DNA of 64,000 nt from positions 47,052 through 111,051 of the IMG/VR virus record IMGVR_UViG_3300021091_000027; one strand, given 5' to 3'. The stretch is from a virus. Positions 2,923 to 64,000 of the stretch are shown piece after piece (position 1 is the stretch's first letter; every line of letters starts with the position of its first letter). The notes beneath the pieces were generated by a model. That model was given only the letters and a program-made list of their open reading frames with translations, had not been told where the DNA came from and did no database searches. Made by a program: the position numbers and the translations under genes.

Positions 2923-3893
2923 TGTATGAATATTTTAAGACAGTAAGCTATCCATTAAAGGAATTTAACTCGGATTACTTTTCGGAGAATCAAAATGATG
3001 CTATAAAATCTACGATAGTAGATTTTGGCATCAATATATACGGTTTATCGCCAGAACTTGAAAATCTTATAATTGGGACACCTAGGATATTTTTAACAGA
3101 AATTGGATCCTCCGACTCCTATTCTTTAATACTTAAATTACAATTAATGATAACAATCGACGACTTAGACTTCTCTTTAGCTGGCGGGGACTTATCAGTT
3201 TCTACAGATACTCACCCAGCAAATGAAGAATTTATTAGAGTTTATTTTGATAGTGAGGACTTTGAATCGCCCGGCTTTATTATTGATGGATTTCTGTGCT
3301 TAAATAATTACTCAAAATTAATTAGAGTATTAGATGGAACAATCTTTAATCCTCCAAATATGGAATTTGAGCCTACAACTATAAATTTCTTTTCTAGGCA
3401 TAGGGTAAATAGTATAACTTGTAAAAACTCAAAGCCTCTAATAATGCAAAAAGCTAATGAGCTGATACACCAACCTCCACAGGATCCGGTATTTGGAGAT
3501 ATAAAGCTAGTGCCCGGAAATAATTGCACTATATCTGTGCGACCTCAAACTAATACAGTAATTATAGGGGCAGTTTTAAATGCTAATGACACCCCCGAAG
3601 AAATCTGCGGAGTGTGGAAAGATAAAATTTCAGGTACAGGTTCAAAAGATTTACTTTGTAGTGAAGTTGTGTATTCTATAGCTGGCGCAAAGCCAGATAA
3701 TTTTGGCAATATTGAAATACAGGCAAATACGCCTCTTAGTGTTAACGCTTTAGTAAAAGATGATTTACCAACTCCATTTAAAACTTTTATAAACGGATCT
3801 AGTTCAGAGTTTTCCCCTATAATACACTATATATACATAGGGCTCCCCCAATCTAATGGGAATTCAAGTGTATTTGATTGTCAAACGGAGTAA
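2922..3893 (+). CDS. Putative tail/baseplate structural protein (paralogue 3)
   Basis: 323 aa; TAATG coupling; VSYPL, GDIKLVPGNN and VYSIAGAKPDNFGNIEI motifs. Confidence 0.5.
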   Translation: MYEYFKTVSYPLKEFNSDYFSENQNDAIKSTIVDFGINIYGLSPELENLIIGTPRIFLTEIGSSDSYSLILKLQLMITIDDLDFSLAGGDLSVSTDTHPANEEFIRVYFDSEDFESPGFIIDGFLCLNNYSKLIRVLDGTIFNPPNMEFEPTTINFFSRHRVNSITCKNSKPLIMQKANELIHQPPQDPVFGDIKLVPGNNCTISVRPQTNTVIIGAVLNANDTPEEICGVWKDKISGTGSKDLLCSEVVYSIAGAKPDNFGNIEIQANTPLSVNALVKDDLPTPFKTFINGSSSEFSPIIHYIYIGLPQSNGNSSVFDCQTE

Positions 3894-3902
3894 CTAGTTC
3901 CA

Positions 3903-5105
3903 ATGCCACTAGCTCTAGACTCATGCGTACCAATTAATCCAGTAGTATCTGGGACAACCTGCGTGACTAACGGAGAAGTAAGTTGCGACACTGGAATTAT
4001 TCCAATTAAAAAATGTGGACCCGATCCTAACAATCCTACAGCAGAAATAAAATGCGTAAATGACATAGTCAGAAGACCTTGGCCTACTCCGCCACCTGCT
4101 GAAATAGGCTGCAATCCTCTAACGGTAAATATTGAAAATACAGTACCAGACGAAGACGACCCCGATCAGACAATGAGGTTGGAGGGTAGCGTCGGTTATA
4201 TATCTGGGGATGCCTGTTTGCCAAAGGTTAATCTAAAGCTAGTGGCTCCGCCCAGCATACTTATTGGGGGCGGATCTCCGAACGTATACGGATCAGGATA
4301 CAATCTAAATGGGATTTGTCATCCAGTAGGGCCAACAAGTGAAGCTGAATTTAAGACTCCTCAGCAGTTTTTGGGTAATGAAAGAAATGCTCACTTGTTT
4401 ACGCCCACTAGCAACTTTCAAGAAGCTCAAAGCCGTTGTCAAGATTCATGCGATAGAAGAAGCCGATATGGAGCCAGTGCGGCAAGGTTTAATATTATTG
4501 GACCTTTCTTAGCATCAATAACTTCACGTCAGGCTATCGGGCAAACAACAATACCTTATACAAATGAAAACGGGGAATCAGTAACTGAGGTCGTAGTTTT
4601 TGCCTGGAGGTATGGCTTCAATGCCGAGCAATGCGTAATTGCAGGAAACGCATGTCAATATCCTTGTGCACCTACAAATAGCTGGGCACAATATCCTAGT
4701 GATCTTGAGTACATGCTGGCATTTAATATAAAAGAAAATTTGGAAAATCCCTACAGCTCTGGAGATAAGATATACGGAGTGGGGGTCAATCTCAGCGACA
4801 TGCTTAGTAAAGGATACAGACCTCAACCAATAATGTTAGGGGCAATGGTTATGGTGTATGGCTATATAAGTTGGGGCACAAGTATTGAATATCAGAGCAG
4901 CGGATCAGGAACTACATCTGAGGCAGATCCAACTACCTGCGACTGTCCAGTGGTGTGGTTTATAGATGAACAGAATGCTTTTGATGGACAATGCCGAGAA
5001 AGCGAAACTTCTGATGCTGTCCAAGCACTATCTAATCTACCTCAAAGAAACGTAACTTCTGCAGGTATGTTCTTCGGAGTAAACGACAATGCCAATAGAG
5101 TTTAA
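3903..5105 (+). CDS. Cys/Pro-rich hypothetical structural protein
   Basis: 400-aa ORF in the same operon; many Cys and Pro residues. Confidence 0.5.
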   Translation: MPLALDSCVPINPVVSGTTCVTNGEVSCDTGIIPIKKCGPDPNNPTAEIKCVNDIVRRPWPTPPPAEIGCNPLTVNIENTVPDEDDPDQTMRLEGSVGYISGDACLPKVNLKLVAPPSILIGGGSPNVYGSGYNLNGICHPVGPTSEAEFKTPQQFLGNERNAHLFTPTSNFQEAQSRCQDSCDRRSRYGASAARFNIIGPFLASITSRQAIGQTTIPYTNENGESVTEVVVFAWRYGFNAEQCVIAGNACQYPCAPTNSWAQYPSDLEYMLAFNIKENLENPYSSGDKIYGVGVNLSDMLSKGYRPQPIMLGAMVMVYGYISWGTSIEYQSSGSGTTSEADPTTCDCPVVWFIDEQNAFDGQCRESETSDAVQALSNLPQRNVTSAGMFFGVNDNANRV

Positions 5106-5523
5106 AAGTGTTGTACATAGACACTCAATTCAAACTGGAATAGTTCCCAGTTCAACAGAGCTATATCCTGGCGAATTGGCACTTAATTTAATTGATCAAA
5201 AGTTATTTACTATGGGCGTCGGCGGAAACATAATAGATCTTACGTCGGCTAATTCGATGTTTTCTTTTTCCGGCGTTACAGCAGGAGCTGTGCTCATATA
5301 TGACTCTGCTTCAAGTAGATTCATTTCAGAAGGCGGAGCAAGCTATATAAGAGCCGTAGCCGATGTACCAGCTAGAGACGCTATACTTCCTGAAAGAAGA
5401 CAGGTAGGAATGTTGGTGTATGTCGTAGATGTCGGTAAATACTATACTCTTACAGATGGAATACTTAATACTGATTGGGTAGAGTTTGACGGAGTGCTAA
5501 CAATGGATGGAGGGGTGTACTGA
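5089..5523 (+). CDS. Tail-fibre-associated protein
   Basis: PSSTELYPGELALNLIDQKLF and ARDAI..RRQVGMLVYV..KYY motifs typical of phage tail-fibre modules; C-terminal DGGxY. Confidence 0.5.
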   Translation: MPIEFKSVVHRHSIQTGIVPSSTELYPGELALNLIDQKLFTMGVGGNIIDLTSANSMFSFSGVTAGAVLIYDSASSRFISEGGASYIRAVADVPARDAILPERRQVGMLVYVVDVGKYYTLTDGILNTDWVEFDGVLTMDGGVY

Positions 5524-5933
5524 TGGCAAGATTTTCTATAAGCTTTGCAACAAATGTCATGTATGAGGCTGACAAAGATCCTGTATACAGGGTGAGGGTA
5601 TCCACTGGGCTGCAGGAGCCTGCAAACTTTTCCGCAATTGATTCAAATTTATTGGTTATAAGTAGAAATAAAAATAGCGATAGCGACTACGTAGATACGT
5701 TTTACGGAATAATTAAGCCTTCCGACTTTGCGGCAATGAGTAAAAACAAACCTAAGCCTGGAGTAAATTTCTACAGGGCTGCTGAATGGAATTTAATATT
5801 CTATAATTTAAAAACCATGAATGAAGCAATTACTCTAATGAAAAAGCAGATTGATATACTGGCAGAGGACATGACGGTTTTCTTTAGAGAGCAAAATAAT
5901 CGCTACGAAACACACATATCGACCTCATTTTAA
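5523..5933 (+). CDS. Hypothetical protein
   Basis: 136-aa ORF, translationally coupled (TGATG). Confidence 0.6.
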   Translation: MARFSISFATNVMYEADKDPVYRVRVSTGLQEPANFSAIDSNLLVISRNKNSDSDYVDTFYGIIKPSDFAAMSKNKPKPGVNFYRAAEWNLIFYNLKTMNEAITLMKKQIDILAEDMTVFFREQNNRYETHISTSF

Positions 5934-5945
5934 TAGGGTATTTTC

Positions 5946-6233
5946 ATGGAAAAAAAATTTGCAATGACGTACGCTACCATAAACGCTCTTCTTAATAACG
6001 AAGAGGTAAGACAGATAAGCCCCTTGATTAAAAATGCTTATGATGTTGTAAACTCAGATATAACATCATCTGGGTGTTCATCTTGTGCTAAAAGAAAGAA
6101 GCTGAATGATGCTGCAATTTCGCTTTTAAGCCAACTTCAAAGCGCCTCAGACATGGAGTTAGATAGAATAAAGAAAGCCCTAGGTGTAGATAAACTAGTG
6201 TTTGCAAGTGGGTTTAAGGCTATCGAGCGGTGA
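5946..6233 (+). CDS. Hypothetical protein with a CxxC motif (GCSSCAKRKK)
   Basis: 95-aa ORF in the operon. Confidence 0.6.
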   Translation: MEKKFAMTYATINALLNNEEVRQISPLIKNAYDVVNSDITSSGCSSCAKRKKLNDAAISLLSQLQSASDMELDRIKKALGVDKLVFASGFKAIER

Positions 6234-7267
6234 TGTCGACCAATCCAGCTATACCTTGTTGCTGCATAAGTCCTAAATTTGTATGCTGCAAAACATACGC
6301 TGTAGCTTTAACTTGCCCTGTGGAACAGATAGGGGATGATTGCGATGTAATTTCAGGGGTTCCTCCAGAAGTTAAATGCGAGTATGAATATAAAATAGTT
6401 TCATGTGTGGATAGTGAGGAGGAGTGTGTATGTGAGGAAATATCTGAACAAGAGGTGACAGGTACTGGAGGATTCGGCAGCGGTGGCGGCGGCGGTGGAA
6501 TGGGCGGTAGCTCTGGAGGCCTCCCACCAGGACATACAATATCTGCATGCATATCAGCTGTATTTCATAATATAAAGTGTGAAAATAATCAACCTCCTAA
6601 CGACAGGGAGATTTGCAAGAACGACAAAAATAGACCGTGTTGCAAAAAAGAATGCGGCCCGTGTGGACCTATGGCCGCCGGATGCGCAGATGACTGCCCT
6701 CCTCCAAATTGCGAAGAACAGGAGTGTTGTGAGCCTCCGCCTCCTACGCTATGCTGCTGCTCTACTATTGAAGGGGGCGAATGCTCAGTTAAAACTTGCG
6801 GTCCATGCCCTCCTGATCCCATTCCTCCAAACTGTTATCAGGTCCCTGCCTGCGATCAGTGTACAGATGGGCCAGATGACTGTACTTTTTACCAATCAGC
6901 CTTATGTTGTCCAACCGAGTTCTGCTGTTGCAACCCGGAGGCGACCTGCGACTGCTGCGACGGCAGCATCCCTGCCTGCTGCGAATGCGAGGAGCCCGGC
7001 TGCGTGCGTTTCAAGTGCATATGTCCGTGTGGTTCAGGCCCACCGTCAGGTCCGCCTCTTTGTATGGGATGTGGTCAACCTACGGCAAACCCAGCGGGTT
7101 GTTTGGCGTTGGGGCTCCAGACCGAAATGCAACATCCCGGAAATAAATTTGAGGATAACTTTGGTACCTTCGTAGAAAACAGTATTGAGAAGGGATTGAT
7201 AAAAACTAAGACTGATGTTAAGCTGAACACCTTGTTTCTATTTGGCTATGGATATAAAAATCTATGA
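6230..7267 (+). CDS. Extremely Cys-rich protein
   Basis: About 51 Cys in 345 aa by manual count; CC/CCC clusters, a Gly linker and Pro runs; overlaps both neighbours by 4 nt. Confidence 0.7.
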   Translation: MMSTNPAIPCCCISPKFVCCKTYAVALTCPVEQIGDDCDVISGVPPEVKCEYEYKIVSCVDSEEECVCEEISEQEVTGTGGFGSGGGGGGMGGSSGGLPPGHTISACISAVFHNIKCENNQPPNDREICKNDKNRPCCKKECGPCGPMAAGCADDCPPPNCEEQECCEPPPPTLCCCSTIEGGECSVKTCGPCPPDPIPPNCYQVPACDQCTDGPDDCTFYQSALCCPTEFCCCNPEATCDCCDGSIPACCECEEPGCVRFKCICPCGSGPPSGPPLCMGCGQPTANPAGCLALGLQTEMQHPGNKFEDNFGTFVENSIEKGLIKTKTDVKLNTLFLFGYGYKNL

Positions 7268-8196
7268 GAGCAATTCATTCATATAAGTTTGATAAGTTAA
7301 GACCGCTATTAGAATCTATTGGCGGGGCGTCAGTGGTAAAGCCAATTATAACCATGATGGCGCTTTCGGCAGTCAGTATACGCAAACATCATGATGACTT
7401 TGTCCTGATTACAGACGATATTGGAGCTGAACTTGCTAAAGCATGTAGTTTGCCTTACTCAAAGGTCGTTTCAGTTGGTTATGAGTTTGGTTCGCACGAA
7501 TGTTTCTGGATTCACAGTAAGCTGCACACCTACGCAACAATAGATTGCCCATTTGTTCACTACGATATCGATTTATTTTTGTGGGATCCGCTTCCAAAAG
7601 AATTTTTAGATAACGATATATTTAACTTTTACTCAGAGGCCCACGTTTGGCCTAGATATGAACAGATCCTTGAAAATTTCATTGCCTCAGGTGTAAAGGT
7701 TCCACTTTACGATAAACTATACCCTGAGAATAAATCTCCATTAAATATGGCGATATTTGGAGGGCACGACATAAAAACCATTAAATCCTGTGGTCAAGAA
7801 CTTTTAGATTTAATGGAAACTAATGATAGATTTTATAACAAGTCAGATGAGATAGTATACGCAATAGAAAATGGAATTTCCTATATAGAACAAGCGCTAA
7901 GTTCTTACATACTTCAGAGCAAACATAGAAAAAGAGTAGTGCCACTTCTAAAAGAGCATCAGGTATTATCCGGAAAAACCGTTCCAGGGATTAAGGTAAC
8001 GCACTTGCACTCCTTGAAACAAGTAGCACAAGCCCAAGGAAAAATTAATGAATTACAAGCAAAACTTGACAGTAAGTTGAAATATCTGGCTCCAGACGTA
8101 CACTCTGCCGTAGCAAAGTTTACTAAAGTTAAAGTTAATATAGATGACATGATAAAGGAGGCAAACTTAAATGATTCGAATCTCACCAATAAATAA
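7264..8196 (+). CDS. Glycosyltransferase-like protein (GT-A fold, DUF6734-like)
   Basis: LITDDIG, FWIHSKLHTY, PFVHYDIDLFLW (DxD motif), NMAIFGG and IEQ motifs. Confidence 0.6.
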   Translation: MRAIHSYKFDKLRPLLESIGGASVVKPIITMMALSAVSIRKHHDDFVLITDDIGAELAKACSLPYSKVVSVGYEFGSHECFWIHSKLHTYATIDCPFVHYDIDLFLWDPLPKEFLDNDIFNFYSEAHVWPRYEQILENFIASGVKVPLYDKLYPENKSPLNMAIFGGHDIKTIKSCGQELLDLMETNDRFYNKSDEIVYAIENGISYIEQALSSYILQSKHRKRVVPLLKEHQVLSGKTVPGIKVTHLHSLKQVAQAQGKINELQAKLDSKLKYLAPDVHSAVAKFTKVKVNIDDMIKEANLNDSNLTNK

Positions 8197-8446
8197 ACAT
8201 GAACAGATTCAAGACGAGGGTCTCAGAGTATATATAGAGGGGGTTGCTCCATTGGCTCTCACCTCGCCAGAGGCTCAAAGGATGGTATTTAATTACGTAA
8301 AAGAAGCAGGTCTGAAAGAATATGGAATGAATAAGTTTGTAGCTATGGAGTCACGTAATCTCAGCAATAATGATTTATATCCTTATAAAGGATATTGGCT
8401 AATGCTTCCAAATCAGTGGAATCAAAAGAAGACAGTTAAAGTATGA
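8171..8446 (+). CDS. Hypothetical protein
   Basis: 91 aa; AGGAGG RBS. Confidence 0.6.
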   Translation: MIRISPINKHEQIQDEGLRVYIEGVAPLALTSPEAQRMVFNYVKEAGLKEYGMNKFVAMESRNLSNNDLYPYKGYWLMLPNQWNQKKTVKV

Positions 8447-8733
8447 GTACCACTTTAACCAACGCTGAACAAAAGATATTTGTACGGAAAAGCGAGTTCG
8501 CAGATAAACTAATACCCATATGTGAAGCCTTAAAGTTAGCAGGATTCGAAATTGCAACAATTGCAGATATTATGGAAAATCTGCAAAACGAAAAAGAACT
8601 TCCTGCTAAGTTTTCAATCATAAATAATAGATATCTCGTGTATAAGAAGGATTTGGTATACGATTTATATAAATCGACTGCAATTGAGCAGCCGGATGAA
8701 CAGAAAAGAATGGCGATTATATTTTGGATTTAG
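8443..8733 (+). CDS. Hypothetical protein
   Basis: 96 aa; ATGA overlap. Confidence 0.6.
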   Translation: MSTTLTNAEQKIFVRKSEFADKLIPICEALKLAGFEIATIADIMENLQNEKELPAKFSIINNRYLVYKKDLVYDLYKSTAIEQPDEQKRMAIIFWI

Positions 8734-10436: not shown

Positions 10437-11249
10437 TTATTCTTCTGCCTTTGCAAGGTTATCTGCGAATATGCCGGCGTTAGGATAAGCCTCGTTGATA
10501 AGTTTAGATTGCATCTCAATCTGCTTCTTCAGATCCTTCTTTGTATCAAGGATATGAGATATAGCTGGATTCTTATAGGTGCCAGTATATCTCTTTTTGG
10601 CGGCATCTGATAGCTGCTTGTACATCTTTGCAACAGCTTTGTAGTCGGCACCTGGCGCTGCAACGCCTAAGGTGTGCTCCTTTATCAGAGTTTGAATCTG
10701 CTTAGCTATATTTGGGTTTTTAGATAGGCTATCAACTATATTCTTGTCCGAGGTGAATATCCTAGAAAGAAAGCCCATTTCCTTCTTTCTCTCTGCCAAT
10801 AACTCATCCAGTCGCTTGTCTGCTTCAGATCTATCAAGTAAGGTTAGCGCTGCACTGCTTAGATTTTTACGTGAATCAGATGTTACCAATGGGTGTTGGC
10901 CAAGGCTTATTCCCGTTATTCCCAAAGCTCGTAAGTAAGCGATTGTACTCGCAGCTAATGCAGTAGCGGTTCCGGGACCAAAAGCTATATCCTTGTCCTT
11001 AAGCTTCTTTCCGTCTAGCATCCCCTTTCTACTGACACTCTTGGCCTGTCGTGCAGCATCGTTGATATTCATTGCTGCGAACTGCAAAACCGTCTTGTTG
11101 ATGTCGTCGGCCGTCAGGTTTCTATTCTCATGCGGATGCGGAGTCATACCTGCCATTCTGTCGTTCCAAAATGACATAAGATACTCCTCTTCTGATGGAA
11201 TACTGTGTGTGGCAGCTAATTTTCTTAAATTATTTGCTACTTTAATCAT
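10437..11249 (-). CDS. Hypothetical protein with MIKVANNL leader
   Basis: 270 aa; first 8 aa are identical to those of 11264-11680. Confidence 0.65.
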   Translation of the reverse strand: MIKVANNLRKLAATHSIPSEEEYLMSFWNDRMAGMTPHPHENRNLTADDINKTVLQFAAMNINDAARQAKSVSRKGMLDGKKLKDKDIAFGPGTATALAASTIAYLRALGITGISLGQHPLVTSDSRKNLSSAALTLLDRSEADKRLDELLAERKKEMGFLSRIFTSDKNIVDSLSKNPNIAKQIQTLIKEHTLGVAAPGADYKAVAKMYKQLSDAAKKRYTGTYKNPAISHILDTKKDLKKQIEMQSKLINEAYPNAGIFADNLAKAEE

Positions 11250-11263
11250 AACTTATTTTTCTT

Positions 11264-11680
11264 TTATTTGTTCCCGGGTGTTTTCCCAGGATATAACGGA
11301 CCTAACTCGGTCTCGACTGTGGTCGAACCTTCACCTTGAGATCTAGGGTTCCCGGGAATCGTTATTGTTGGATTGCCGTGTATGGGGATGTAATCATCCA
11401 GCAGGCGATTTTTAGCTTTAAGACCCCCGTACAGGCCTACTCCGCCACCCAGTCCGAGTCCGGCCAGGCCACCATAGCCGAGGCCTTTTAGAATCGACTT
11501 GCCTCTCAGCGCCTGAATCAAGCCGCCAATGGCAGAACCCCCCAGGGCCCCCAGACCGCCGCCGATGGCGGTGTTCGTATACGGCAGGATCTTGGCGAGA
11601 TCTGCGAGCGTTCCACTCCACTGCAAACCGGCAGACTTGACAGAGACCATACGTTGAAGATTATTTGCTACTTTAATCAT
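11264..11680 (-). CDS. Glycine-zipper protein with MIKVANNL leader
   Basis: 138 aa; GGGLGALGGSAIGG and GGLAGLGLGGGVG; locally higher GC. Confidence 0.65.
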   Translation of the reverse strand: MIKVANNLQRMVSVKSAGLQWSGTLADLAKILPYTNTAIGGGLGALGGSAIGGLIQALRGKSILKGLGYGGLAGLGLGGGVGLYGGLKAKNRLLDDYIPIHGNPTITIPGNPRSQGEGSTTVETELGPLYPGKTPGNK

Positions 11681-11682
11681 AA

Positions 11683-13029
11683 TTACATTTCTTGGGCTGT
11701 GCCTATTTGAGAGTTAAGAGAGTTCTGTTCGTGCTGTTGTCTTGCTTGTCGAGCCTTAACCGCAGCGAGTCCAGCCTGAGCATCGAGAGCATCTAGTTTA
11801 GCTTGTTCTTTCTTTTCGTTCATGCGAGCCTCAAAAGAAGAATCGTCTTCGCCGGGCATTGGATTAGTGTCATCCATAAGCATTTGTTGCATAGCGGGCA
11901 TCATGCCCATATTGGCTTCTTTAAATAAACGACTCAGTAGATCGTCGGTTGTTTCTGGTATATAGCCGGAGGTCTTAACAGCTTCTTCAAAGCGGCGGGC
12001 TTCTGGTTTAGGCATAGTGGGCAGAATTTCTGCAGCCTTGTTGCGGTCTACGTTAAAGCCATCTGTCTGGCAGTAAGACAAAAAATCGTCTCCAGCAATC
12101 TTAAGGCCTTTTTCAAGTTGATGGTCGCTGATCTTGGTGAGATCTACTGGGATGCCAGTAGTTAAATGAACAATTCCATCAGCTACTGATGCAGCTTTAG
12201 TAAGGCTGACCCTAAAGCATACATCAATGGGGTGCTGCAGAGCCGAACCCCACTTTGAATTTAAGCCGTGTTTAATATCAAAAGCCTCTAGGCAGTTACA
12301 AATTATATCCCCCGCGTTACACAATTCAAATGGATGGGTGCTTAAATCATTGGCTACTTTTAATAACTCATCTTCAAGTTCTGACCACTTAACGGTAGGT
12401 ATGCTACTTAATCTGTCTGTGATAGCAACAGCTATTTTGCAGTTTATATTTGAATAAGTATTTGAATTAGCAACTCTGTCAATATAGGCAGCAGCTTTTA
12501 CGTTTAATTTAAAAATGTCTGCCCTTGCCTGCAACTTAGAGGCTGTTTTCCTTTGAACATCTGTAAGAAACTTATACCTATTTTCATATAGCCACTCTGC
12601 GCTGGCCGTAGCTGCTTCTTTGGTGTGATCTGGACATCTTTCTATCTTTGCACCTTTATGCTCAAATGTCATAGCATACGATACTGGAATAATTTGTTGT
12701 TCAAATGCAGATTTGATAGTTTCTACATCTTCTAAGATGCCCCAAACTCTTGCTGCATTTAATAATTTTACTTCAGCTTGTTTCCCTATCGGTGAAGTGC
12801 TACACTGGTTGCCGTAGAAATAAAGAGCAGAACACCAGCAATCAGATTTACTGTCGAGGGCAAATTTCTTGTTTACTGTGTCCGCAAAGCATTTAGAACT
12901 CTTTATAGCAGCGGCGTCTTTAGTAAGAACGCCTGCAGACTTAACATATTCAGGCATTGCCACTTGTTGTATGAGCGCATTATAGTACTTTTTAGAGACG
13001 TCATCAGTTATGTCAATCCAGCGAATCAT
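11683..13029 (-). CDS. K-x-A-rich protein (putative head/scaffold-associated)
   Basis: 448 aa; AAGGA RBS; at least 10 K-x-A motifs (KSAG, KQAE, KEAA, KTAS, KVAN, KAAS, KEAN). Confidence 0.6.
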   Translation of the reverse strand: MIRWIDITDDVSKKYYNALIQQVAMPEYVKSAGVLTKDAAAIKSSKCFADTVNKKFALDSKSDCWCSALYFYGNQCSTSPIGKQAEVKLLNAARVWGILEDVETIKSAFEQQIIPVSYAMTFEHKGAKIERCPDHTKEAATASAEWLYENRYKFLTDVQRKTASKLQARADIFKLNVKAAAYIDRVANSNTYSNINCKIAVAITDRLSSIPTVKWSELEDELLKVANDLSTHPFELCNAGDIICNCLEAFDIKHGLNSKWGSALQHPIDVCFRVSLTKAASVADGIVHLTTGIPVDLTKISDHQLEKGLKIAGDDFLSYCQTDGFNVDRNKAAEILPTMPKPEARRFEEAVKTSGYIPETTDDLLSRLFKEANMGMMPAMQQMLMDDTNPMPGEDDSSFEARMNEKKEQAKLDALDAQAGLAAVKARQARQQHEQNSLNSQIGTAQEM

Positions 13030-61488: not shown

Positions 61489-61564
61489 CAGTATTGAAAA
61501 TAATCATGTCAACAGTCATCAAATTTCTCATTTAAGTCATTATTTAACAATATAAGGAGTATAA

Positions 61565-61960
61565 ATGATAGACATTACGTATTCAAGAACCGGACTGCCG
61601 TGTATATGGGAGTCCGGCGGCGGTAGAACCAACTCCGGTCGCAGTCAAATAGTGTGCGATCGTAGCGGATTACCAATATCCCCCCTTTACATCAAACAAA
61701 GAGGCGTTTTGGCATGCGGTGAACACGCTCTTTTCCATGTGAAGCCCGGCACATATGTCATAGGGGCATCACGGCGTCACTCAGATTATGAAATATTAAT
61801 CTATGTAGTGGAAGACAATCCGGTTCGATTAAATCTAGTCTACTCATACTGCCAAGGAGAGTGGGCTTTAGATCCTCCTGCCGAATTGGAAGACGCCATA
61901 GAGGCAGCAAAAAGGAAGACGACAGAGTACCACTGCCGTCGACCAGTTTACTTCAAATAA
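61565..61960 (+). CDS. Hypothetical phage protein (WESGGG motif)
   Basis: 131 aa; TAAGGAG RBS. Confidence 0.7.
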   Translation: MIDITYSRTGLPCIWESGGGRTNSGRSQIVCDRSGLPISPLYIKQRGVLACGEHALFHVKPGTYVIGASRRHSDYEILIYVVEDNPVRLNLVYSYCQGEWALDPPAELEDAIEAAKRKTTEYHCRRPVYFK

Positions 61961-62067
61961 TGCCCTAAAATAAGGGTTAAAACGTGGTATAGATATATAC
62001 ACCGGTCCTATAGGTATTGCTGGGCGTTCCAGAGTACCCAATAGGCCACATTAAGGAGATAGTGTCA

Positions 62068-62568
62068 ATGAAGAAGACCCTTTTGTTCGTGTTGTCTGTG
62101 TTTCTCGCTATTGGACTACCGATGGTGCTGATCTGGGGAGCTTATCAGACTGCCGTTGCGGCGACAAATGCTCCAACAGTTCCGGCCATCCCGGTCGTCC
62201 TGGACTCAGGCGAACGCTGGTACGACCCATTCTCATGGGGATTGGATGAGGCTGCGGCAATCGCAACTCAACAGGCACAAGAAGCTGCCACCCGCACGAC
62301 TAAAGCCGTGACGACGTGGACTAGCAGTATGTTCCTGCTGACTGGCCTTCTGGTTACCATTGCAGTCGGTATTTGGAGTGGAGTTAGAGAGCAATCACAG
62401 CTCAAAAACTCCTGGCAGAAGTTTCGCATCGAGTCGTTAGGTGGTGAAATGACTTCTGGTTCAACTCCAAATCAAGTTCCTCCTAATTCGGAAGACACCG
62501 ATACGGAAGAGCAAGACTCGGTAGTAGCTGGGAAGGCCGCAAAAAGCCATCCTAACCAGCGCCGCTGA
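62068..62568 (+). CDS. Two-TM membrane protein
   Basis: ATG 62068 after TAAGGAG; two hydrophobic helices. Confidence 0.7.
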   Translation: MKKTLLFVLSVFLAIGLPMVLIWGAYQTAVAATNAPTVPAIPVVLDSGERWYDPFSWGLDEAAAIATQQAQEAATRTTKAVTTWTSSMFLLTGLLVTIAVGIWSGVREQSQLKNSWQKFRIESLGGEMTSGSTPNQVPPNSEDTDTEEQDSVVAGKAAKSHPNQRR

Positions 62569-62587
62569 GCCTGAGGTCGCAGACAAA

Positions 62588-62624
62588 CCCGGGCGCCCTG
62601 TACAGGGCGCCCGGGCTCTCTTTT
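62588..62624 (+). terminator. GC-rich hairpin/terminator
   Basis: CCCGGGCGCCCTG-TA-CAGGGCGCCCGGG followed by CTCTCTTTT. Confidence 0.65.
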
Positions 62625-62635
62625 AACAAAACATT

Positions 62636-62712
62636 CTCGACTATGCGAGTATAAATAGGGTATTAAGCATAGTGCGTTCATATAAATCTACGAATTTATA
62701 CTGAGGTTACTC
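62636..62712 (+). ncRNA. Pistol self-cleaving ribozyme
   Basis: P1 CUCG/CGAG; loop ACUAUG pairs with CAUAGU (pseudoknot); UAAAUAG linker; P2 GGUA/UACU; UUAAG; conserved GCG; P3 hairpin; predicted G62706/U62707 cleavage site. Confidence 0.9.
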
Positions 62713-62849
62713 TAGTCACAGCTTGAGAGCTACGAAGAAGTGAAACAACTTCGATATGCTCTAGTTTCACAAGACTCATGACTAACTAGCAGATGTAGTT
62801 CAGGGTCCCTACCTCTGTTAGAATTGAGGAACAATATGAGACCTTACAT
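62713..62849 (+). ncRNA. Putative structured small RNA downstream of the pistol cleavage site
   Basis: Nested stems UAGUCA/UGACUA, AGAGC/GCUCU and CGAAG/CUUCG; 7-bp pseudoknot GUGAAAC/GUUUCAC; second domain AUGUAG/UUACAU, GGUC/GACC, CCUC/GAGG. Confidence 0.5.
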
Positions 62850-62851
62850 GG

Positions 62852-62887
62852 GCACACTGTGGGGAAACCCACAGTGTGCTTTTCTTT
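62852..62887 (+). terminator. Intrinsic terminator
   Basis: 12-bp stem GCACACTGTGGG/CCCACAGTGTGC, GAAA loop, TTTTCTTT. Confidence 0.85.
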
Positions 62888-63052
62888 GGCAGTAATCTTA
62901 TAGATTTACTTGAATCAACTAAGTTGCCGCCAAAAAGTTGCATACGTACCGATGTAACTAAAAAAATAAAGTATTAGCGGTACAAACACACACAGCATGT
63001 AGGTATTGCTGGGCGTTCCAGACTACTTATATGTGCATTTGGAGACAACAGC

Positions 63053-63841
63053 ATGAATATCGTTAGGAGTATTTTTTCAAACATTGTTTGTTTCGGCATT
63101 GGCGTCATGGTTGCAAGTTTTTATGCGGCTTCGTCGGCAGCTACGGCTTCGTCGGCAGCTACGGCTCCGTCAGCAGCTGCGGTTCCATCGGTGGCTGTGG
63201 TTCCATCGGTGGCTGTGGTTCCATCGGCAGCTGCGGTTCCATCGGTGGCTGCGGCTTCGTCAGCAGCTACGGCTCCGTCGGCAAATAAAACTTTGGCACC
63301 AATTCTGATGTTGCCTGATTCGAATACCCCTAAGATTCTTAATAGTCTTTCAGATCGAATCAGATCGGCAAATTCGGCAGTAAAACGCGCTGATGAGCGT
63401 TTGCAGTCACTGCAGGAAGATCAGAAAAAGTCGGTCAGCACTAGCCAGATTCTGACGGAACTAGTGCCCGTCTACTACGAAGAGGACTACTCAACTCTTT
63501 ACGCAGAGGCGAAAACAGCAGGAGTCGAAATGATTCCTCATTTTGGTAACACCATAAAAACGGCATACACTTTAGCCAATAAAGAGAATATGCCGGAAGT
63601 TCGCATTGTGAAAATTGCCAAGGTTACCCGCCTTGGCAGCGCCTTCACAGTGCAAGTCTTGGACCAGTCCACCTTACACCTACCAGAGTACGAAGACCTC
63701 ATCGAGTTTATCGCTACTAATGGTGGAAATTCTGAGACTTTGGAGATAATTCAGGTGGAACGCATAAATGATGAGCGCGAGCTTGAATCATTAGCGAACC
63801 CCACTTGGAGTCAGTTCTTCAAATGGTGGTGGAACAGCTGA
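63053..63841 (+). CDS. Membrane-anchored protein with Ala/Ser/Val repeats and a coiled coil
   Basis: GGAG RBS; N-terminal TM; 6-aa repeats; Trp-rich C-terminus. Confidence 0.7.
   Translation: MNIVRSIFSNIVCFGIGVMVASFYAASSAATASSAATAPSAAAVPSVAVVPSVAVVPSAAAVPSVAAASSAATAPSANKTLAPILMLPDSNTPKILNSLSDRIRSANSAVKRADERLQSLQEDQKKSVSTSQILTELVPVYYEEDYSTLYAEAKTAGVEMIPHFGNTIKTAYTLANKENMPEVRIVKIAKVTRLGSAFTVQVLDQSTLHLPEYEDLIEFIATNGGNSETLEIIQVERINDERELESLANPTWSQFFKWWWNS
63126..63282 (+). repeat. Imperfect 18-bp coding tandem repeat (about 8 units)
   Basis: TCGGCAGCTACGGCTTCG / TCGGTGGCTGTGGTTCCA-type units encoding SAATAS/SVAVVP. Confidence 0.85.
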
Positions 63842-63882
63842 GCAAGTACCAAGGTTGGGTGTCATCCATAAACACCATCTTT

Positions 63883-64000
63883 CTCGACTATGCGAGTATA
63901 AACGTTAGACAAGGGTCTAAGGTCATAGTACATCCCACATAGATCAGCAGGTCTGTGTGGGTGTGGGTTTTTAATCCCACTTCAGCTGAAGACCTAACCC
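63883..64000 (+). ncRNA. Pistol-scaffold-derived structured RNA (non-canonical; may run past the window end)
   Basis: 22-nt block identical to the pistol 5' half, retained CAUAGU pseudoknot partner, additional hairpins; lacks the GCG and GU core. Confidence 0.55.

Follow-up and report, generated by a model that had tools for sequence, protein, structure and literature searches.

To our knowledge, the biological role of pistol ribozymes is still open. The paper that introduced the class is reportedly that of Weinberg et al. from 2015. A candidate pistol lying between two genes of an uncultured phage raises two questions: does it belong to the class, and which of the RNAs on either side of its cut would profit from cleavage? 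The phage is a tailed virus from lake water with a genome of about 180 kb. It is represented by a linear 111-kb IMG/VR record (completeness estimate 62%), and the stretch analysed here, called the window, is the final 64 kb of that record. The window codes for a large terminase, a family-A DNA polymerase, a helicase and a ribonucleotide reductase, and the large terminase shares only 29% identity with its nearest relatives in sequenced phages. No tRNA gene was found within the 64-kb window, unlike in related contigs, where tRNA and tmRNA genes adjoin pistols. Public runs listed with DNA identical or near-identical to the region number 22, all of them lake-water metagenomes and none recorded as RNA. 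A near-identity search with the 4 kb around the pistol gave no match among sequenced phages. When the same phages were searched for distant likeness to the 261-nt module described below, the sole match was a 42-nt pistol-like piece in Cellulosimicrobium phage DS1.

A reading of the sequence alone had proposed that the element is a canonical pistol. Comparison of the whole window with all 4227 Rfam families returned the Pistol family (RF02679) at 62635-62711 on the + strand with 46.4 bits, against a gathering score of 34.5, and E = 2.6e-05. The match is full-length (model positions 1-68 of 68) and is the only one at the gathering threshold in the 64-kb window. Searched alone against the 111-kb record, RF02679 gave E = 1.1e-8 and a single copy. 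The Rfam alignment places every element (P1, the 6-bp pseudoknot, AAA, P2, UUAAG, GCG, P3 and GU) exactly where the sequence-only reading had placed it (Table 1) and, together with the published roles of the core residues (PMC6154101, PMC4604425), agrees with its view of a canonical pistol. Judged by its sequence, the element almost certainly belongs to the class.

Table 1. Features of the pistol locus, in window coordinates.
Feature	Position	Strand	Evidence
Upstream gene, small protein	62069..62568	+	ORF list, sequence, translation
GC-rich hairpin with weak U-rich tail	62588..62615	+	Terminator-like site prediction; forms in the fold
Pistol ribozyme, entire	62635..62711	+	Rfam RF02679, 46.4 bits vs 34.5, full length
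P1 hairpin	62636..62649	+	Sequence and Rfam alignment; covaries in related pistols
Linker UAUAAAUAG, invariant AAA at 62653-55	62650..62658	+	Invariant columns in pistol alignments
P2 5' strand GGUA	62659..62662	+	Pairs with 62708-11; strong covariation in relatives
Internal loop UUAAG	62663..62667	+	Rfam alignment
Pseudoknot 3' strand CAUAGU	62668..62673	+	Six Watson-Crick pairs with 62640-45
Catalytic GCG	62674..62676	+	38/38 distinct Rfam-passing pistols
P3 hairpin	62677..62705	+	Fold; two compensatory pair changes vs L038
Predicted scissile junction G/U	62706..62707	+	2-nt P3-P2 junction in Rfam alignment; chemistry from PMC4604425
P2 3' strand UACU	62708..62711	+	Rfam alignment; predicted to remain on 5' end of downstream product
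Small RNA body	62712..62849	+	Common to L017, L038 and L043 with unrelated flanks; aligned with 6 other contigs
Intrinsic-terminator-like hairpin, 14 pairs, and U-run	62850..62889	+	Terminator prediction; hairpin 62850-62881 covaries in 7 aligned modules

P1 has a stem of 4 bp (62636-39 with 62646-49, CUCG/CGAG) and a loop of 6 nt (62640-45, ACUAUG) that provides the 5' strand of the pseudoknot. The four pairs of P2, GGUA/UACU, are G-U, G-C, U-A and A-U. P3 joins 62677-87 to 62694-62705 in 11 pairs, with a bulged C at 62701 and a 6-nt loop at 62688-93. A pseudoknot-free minimum-free-energy fold picked P3 and the pseudoknot helix (62640-45/62668-73). The element agrees with the pistol class as described (RF02679; Harris et al. 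2015, PMC4604425; env25 structure 5K7C, reviewed in PMC6154101) in the order of its parts, the topology of its pseudoknot, the conserved nucleotides (AAA, purine-32, G33, G40-C41-G42) and a junction of 2 nt that reads GU. It is phage-associated, and so were pistols described in the 2015 characterisation of the class, which placed them in phage genomes and close to phage genes (PMC4604425). It differs in a P3 longer than the model consensus, with its bulged C, and in a linker one G longer than the commonest form; both deviations are within the range of other pistol members.

All conserved pistol nucleotides are present in the core, namely AAA at 62653-55 and A62666, G62667, G62674, C62675 and G62676, which are equivalent to purine-32, G33, G40, C41 and G42 of env25, respectively (by coincidence, element position n, at 62634+n, matches env25 numbering up to G42). 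In the env25 structure, purine-32, G40 and G42 adjoin the scissile bond, which is that of the GU junction, and G33 forms a pair with C41; G40 acts as general base in pistols (PMC6154101). Cleavage of the class occurs by attack of the 2'-oxygen and requires Mg2+ under normal conditions, the stems and the pseudoknot have been validated with compensatory mutants, and the 2-nt length of the junction is strictly conserved (PMC4604425). By homology, the window pistol would be cut between G62706 and U62707, the position that had been read from the sequence and that agrees with the Rfam alignment. The predicted products carry a 2',3'-cyclic phosphate on G62706 and a 5'-OH on U62707. We consider it highly probable that 62635-62711 does cleave itself.

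Relatives of the element were found through an exact 20-mer comprising P1, its loop and the start of the linker, which occurs in 37 IMG/VR contigs (L014-L050), most of them with a pistol that reaches the Rfam threshold. Within this sub-group P1, the pseudoknot strands and the linker are identical to those of the window, whereas P2 and P3 vary, with covariation in both. That the genes on either side are unrelated indicates that the module moves between genomes or genomic places. The Rfam-passing 20-mer contigs and further pistols from the same IMG/VR loci made up 38 distinct pistols, in all of which the GCG is kept; the columns of the AAA linker, purine-32, G33 and G40-C41-G42 are likewise invariant among the relatives. 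Across 26 parsed pistols, paired cells reached 100% in P1, 99% in the pseudoknot, 87% in P2 and 99% in outer P3, compared with shuffled-partner means of 94%, 83%, 42% and 56%, the P2 and P3 percentages being somewhat inflated because the rows were filtered for a clean parse. Pair changes on both sides are numerous in this set, and the junction reads GU in 19 of its 26 members. Strands were parsed from the Rfam end coordinates, other stem parsers having been dropped since they over-fitted the long P3. MAFFT alignments of the pistols match the 5' half and not the 3' strands, and were used neither for pair counts nor for covariance-model building.

A sister copy of the element, present in L017, L038 and L043 as well as in lake metagenome contigs, differs from the window by two compensatory changes in P3, from C-G to U-A at 62679/62703 and from A-U to G-C at 62682/62699, and keeps the bulge. 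The 3'-strand changes of this variant (62699, 62701 and 62703) were seen in contigs from three of the four lake-water runs compared. The compensatory changes between the sister copies show selection for pairing in the predicted P3 helix.

The gene before the pistol is likely to start at ATG 62069, after an AAGGAG ribosome-binding site. Its product has an N-terminal signal or transmembrane segment and a second hydrophobic segment, hydrophobic stretches having been judged by eye, and matched no Pfam or PHROG family and no protein in viral contigs. The hairpin that follows the gene is strong (12 pairs, 11 of them G-C) and may be either a leaky terminator or a 3'-protecting stem of the upstream mRNA; were it an efficient terminator, the ribozyme could seldom be made from the upstream transcript. 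The sequence-only reading had put about 10 nt between hairpin and pistol. That figure stands if the U-rich tail is counted with the hairpin and falls if only the stem is considered, which ends at 62615, 20 nt before P1.

No sigma-70-like promoter was found on the + strand from 61500 to 64000. The TATAAATA within the linker was considered as a T4-type late promoter and rejected, the motif not being enriched in the window (6 found, 5.1 expected). It is plausible that the ribozyme lacks a dedicated promoter and works within a transcript that arrives from upstream. A finding that bears on this reading is that the sequence common with the sister copies starts exactly at P1 and not upstream of it. 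A phage-specific promoter in or next to the hairpin is possible; transcription starting at such a promoter inside the ribozyme would leave the ribozyme incomplete. A 27-nt repeat occurs at 62011-62037 and 63000-63026 (96% identical), about 30 nt before the start codons of both neighbour genes. It can form a small hairpin, has only these two copies in the 111-kb record and may be a shared leader or promoter element.

Downstream of the pistol, the + strand has no ORF of at least 40 codons before 63053. The similarity to L038 extends over a block of about 270 nt that begins exactly at P1 and stops just after the 62850-62881 hairpin, and both flanks of the block are unrelated to those in L038. What is common with L017, L038 and L043, at about 93% identity, is thus a whole module of ribozyme, small RNA and terminator. 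The first stem of the small RNA, as placed by minimum-free-energy folding, begins 6 nt after the predicted cut. In the roughly 140 nt that separate ribozyme and terminator, three nested stems were identified at 62722-25/62770-73, 62726-30/62758-62 and 62733-37/62749-53, and the apical loop UGAAAC (62741-46) is complementary to GUUUCA (62764-69). Both of these motifs are invariant in the seven aligned modules (7/7), the stems covary, and a further compensatory change at 62728/62760 was seen in lake metagenome contigs. A CUAAC motif lies at 62782-86, and an ACAUGGG-like motif is also conserved in the RNA. This stretch matched no Rfam family at E values up to 10. Taken as a whole, 62707-62890 appears to be a conserved, uncatalogued phage small RNA of about 180 nt.

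A tight pattern scan for the downstream RNA in viral contigs gave 88 matches. Convincing copies number 13 (about 9 distinct sequences), 12 of them directly before a 12-pair terminator hairpin and one, in L023, accepted by inspection. A pistol lies about 93-104 nt upstream of UGAAACA in 13/13 of them, in a scan that needed exact UGAAACA, GUUUCA and ACAUGGG and that divergent copies devoid of a pistol would therefore escape. Some of the pistols before small-RNA copies have different P1/pseudoknot sequences or a variant linker. The remaining pattern matches lie in unrelated, mostly apparently coding sequence and look like chance. A looser pattern (UGAAACA..GUUUCA..CUAAC) was given up, since among the matches listed it yielded essentially chance matches only. 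Besides the window, the small RNA is found in L017, L023, L025, L033, L037, L038, L041, L050, L176, L182, L194, L224, L237 and L247.

Other observations concern the integrity of the module. At L023:12353-12692, an insertion of about 90 nt seems to split P3 ahead of the GU junction and the small RNA, and the Rfam match ends early. Lake metagenome assemblies break at module or repeat borders (62659, 62845, 62883 and 63962), and both module variants were present together in three of the four lake-water runs compared.

Pistols are not confined to this arrangement; they also occur before ORFs, before other RNAs and inside tRNA arrays. Such varied contexts indicate a general cutting device that is not specific to the downstream small RNA. 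L046 carries eight Rfam-passing pistols on one strand within 5.2 kb (3360-8574), each about 17-30 nt upstream of an AAGGAG ribosome-binding site and a start codon, with covarying P1/pseudoknot; this array looks like an operon in which each gene is punctuated by its own ribozyme. The 20-mer sub-group also has pistols inside phage tRNA arrays, in L015, L019, L020, L028 and L029 (also L032, L036 and L047), some of them near a tmRNA gene. In L019, for example, the pistol at 11486-11545 is located between tRNAs at 11247-11319 and 11804-11877. A different conserved non-coding stretch of about 165 nt separates the pistol from the next tRNA in L015, L019 and L029. Pistol-like elements below the threshold were observed in L021 and L030, where a hairpin of about 26 nt is inserted between the pseudoknot strand and GCG, and in the region of L018:4490-4509, which has GACA after the pseudoknot strand where others have UGCG.

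A second pistol-like element is located at the very end of the window. An exact second copy of the 22 nt of P1, its loop and the start of the linker occupies 63881-63902, and the partner strand of the pseudoknot is retained at 63924-29. A local hairpin then replaces P2 and ACA replaces GCG, followed by a generic hairpin repeat. This element (63881-64000) has no Rfam match at E values up to 10. As the contig ends at 64000, its 3' part may be missing; its appearance suggests either a pistol that has been rearranged or has decayed, or another kind of RNA on the same scaffold. A 28-nt hairpin repeat occurs once in the window (63934-63961) and three times upstream of the L038 pistol. Between the module and this element, nine tandem 18-nt repeats (63106-63317) lie inside a gene of 262 aa (63053-63841); their translation is an array of hexapeptides rich in Ala, Ser, Val and Pro that follows an N-terminal hydrophobic segment. 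Contigs from lake metagenomes are broken or variable at these repeats.

Together, the anatomy of the locus suggests how the ribozyme would be used. Transcription would probably run on from the membrane-protein gene through the leaky hairpin at 62588-62615 into the pistol. Once the stems P1, P2 and P3 and the pseudoknot had formed, G62674 would activate the 2'-OH of G62706 and the chain would break between G62706 and U62707. The predicted upstream product consists of the mRNA, the hairpin and a 72-nt ribozyme body ending in a 2',3'-cyclic phosphate. The downstream product would be a structured RNA of about 180 nt that begins with 5'-OH-UUACU and ends at the 62850-62889 terminator. Since pistols are cleaved 5 nt before their 3' end, almost all of the ribozyme would remain with the upstream product. 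The ribozyme is also the front part of a conserved module of ribozyme and small RNA, which makes the downstream RNA, rather than the upstream mRNA, the likely beneficiary; the ribozyme would give the small RNA a defined 5' end and free it from the preceding transcript. We lean towards the explanation that cleavage by the ribozyme sets free the 5' end of a phage small RNA that is transcribed as part of a longer RNA, and think it fairly probable as a whole, and we would attach a slightly smaller measure of confidence to 5'-end formation as the purpose of the element.

A different meaning of the locus was considered at several levels. A chance resemblance in AU-rich intergenic DNA might be suspected from the folding energy of the 78 nt alone, which is not unusual (z = -0.99). 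Such a value is however expected, because the RNA is short, AU-rich and pseudoknotted, and the support for the pistol is the covariance model and the comparison with relatives, not folding energy. The E values of both searches speak against chance, as do the copies in dozens of viral contigs, some near-identical and others diverged, whose stems covary. The model score and the relatives already refute this explanation, and we give it virtually no credence. The element might also be an inactive relic that has the look of a pistol and does not cleave, owing for instance to the extra linker G or the P3 bulge, and in the Rfam alignment the bulge and the extra length do leave inner P3 marked as not matching. 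The catalytic residues are nevertheless all intact, and the 9-nt linker occurs together with a 4-bp P2 in seven other pistols above the Rfam threshold. In addition, the length and loop of P3 vary freely in the class, constructs without the P3 loop still cleave (PMC4604425), and the compensatory changes between sister copies indicate that pairing in P3 is selected. A relic is thus very improbable.

If the ribozyme is active, it could instead serve the upstream mRNA, giving it a fixed 3' end with a cyclic phosphate that sets its stability, with the downstream RNA as an independent neighbour. In keeping with such a role, the stop codon is followed by a strong hairpin and, 20 nt further on, by the ribozyme; pistols found elsewhere directly after stop codons and before the next gene, eight of them in the L046 array, likewise fit mRNA punctuation. 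However, conservation does not extend to the upstream gene and its hairpin, in place of which the sister copies have quite different DNA, and the pistol accompanies the downstream RNA in every one of its convincing copies, so that we regard a role for the upstream mRNA as unlikely. It could also act as a back-up of termination that cuts read-through transcripts, the 5'-OH downstream part being degraded and the polymerase dislodged. The pistols of L015, L029, L035 and L044, located 7-13 nt after hairpins with U-runs, are in line with this proposal. A terminator directly before the pistol was nevertheless rejected as a general rule, because a hairpin with a U-run precedes 5/39 pistols compared with 7.9% of random places in the same loci, which is no clear enrichment. 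Moreover, the downstream RNA is conserved, structured and covarying and has its own terminator, features of a product to keep rather than to degrade, and a back-up function seems decidedly improbable.

Release of the small RNA can be compared with two arrangements described in phages. HDV-like ribozymes cut at their own 5' end and would therefore finish the RNA that lies upstream of them. Theta ribozymes, minimal HDV-like ribozymes found by phage tRNAs, have been proposed to form the end of the adjoining phage RNA (PMC10879173). They share with the window pistol that they are small self-cleaving phage ribozymes beside a non-coding RNA. They belong to a different class and have the opposite geometry, since a pistol is cut at its 3' end and would finish the downstream RNA. 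Ribozyme-punctuated phage or prophage operons resemble the locus in having, inside a transcription unit, a self-cleaving RNA that lacks its own promoter. In contrast to these, the window pistol is single in 111 kb, is coupled to a small RNA and is not repeated between genes.

As a ribozyme, the window pistol is routine, and standard Rfam annotation detects such members. The only part beyond routine annotation is its linkage to a specific, uncatalogued small RNA. The value of the locus lies in this context, with a pistol tied to a conserved small RNA in a module that has a clear start (the cut) and a clear end (the terminator). The geometry suits the proposed role, as a cut 5 nt from the 3' end of the ribozyme would leave the downstream RNA almost scar-free. 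So compact a module makes a testable hypothesis, that ribozymes make the 5' ends of phage small RNAs. More tentatively, and with rather less than even confidence, we suggest a mobile, promoter-less phage RNA gene in two parts, of which the pistol is the indispensable front half. Such a gene would ride any upstream transcript, cut itself out of it, stop at its own terminator and free a pseudoknotted RNA of about 180 nt with a 5'-OH. If this were true, the locus would provide the pistol class with its first defined natural substrate and role, and phages with a new small-RNA family.
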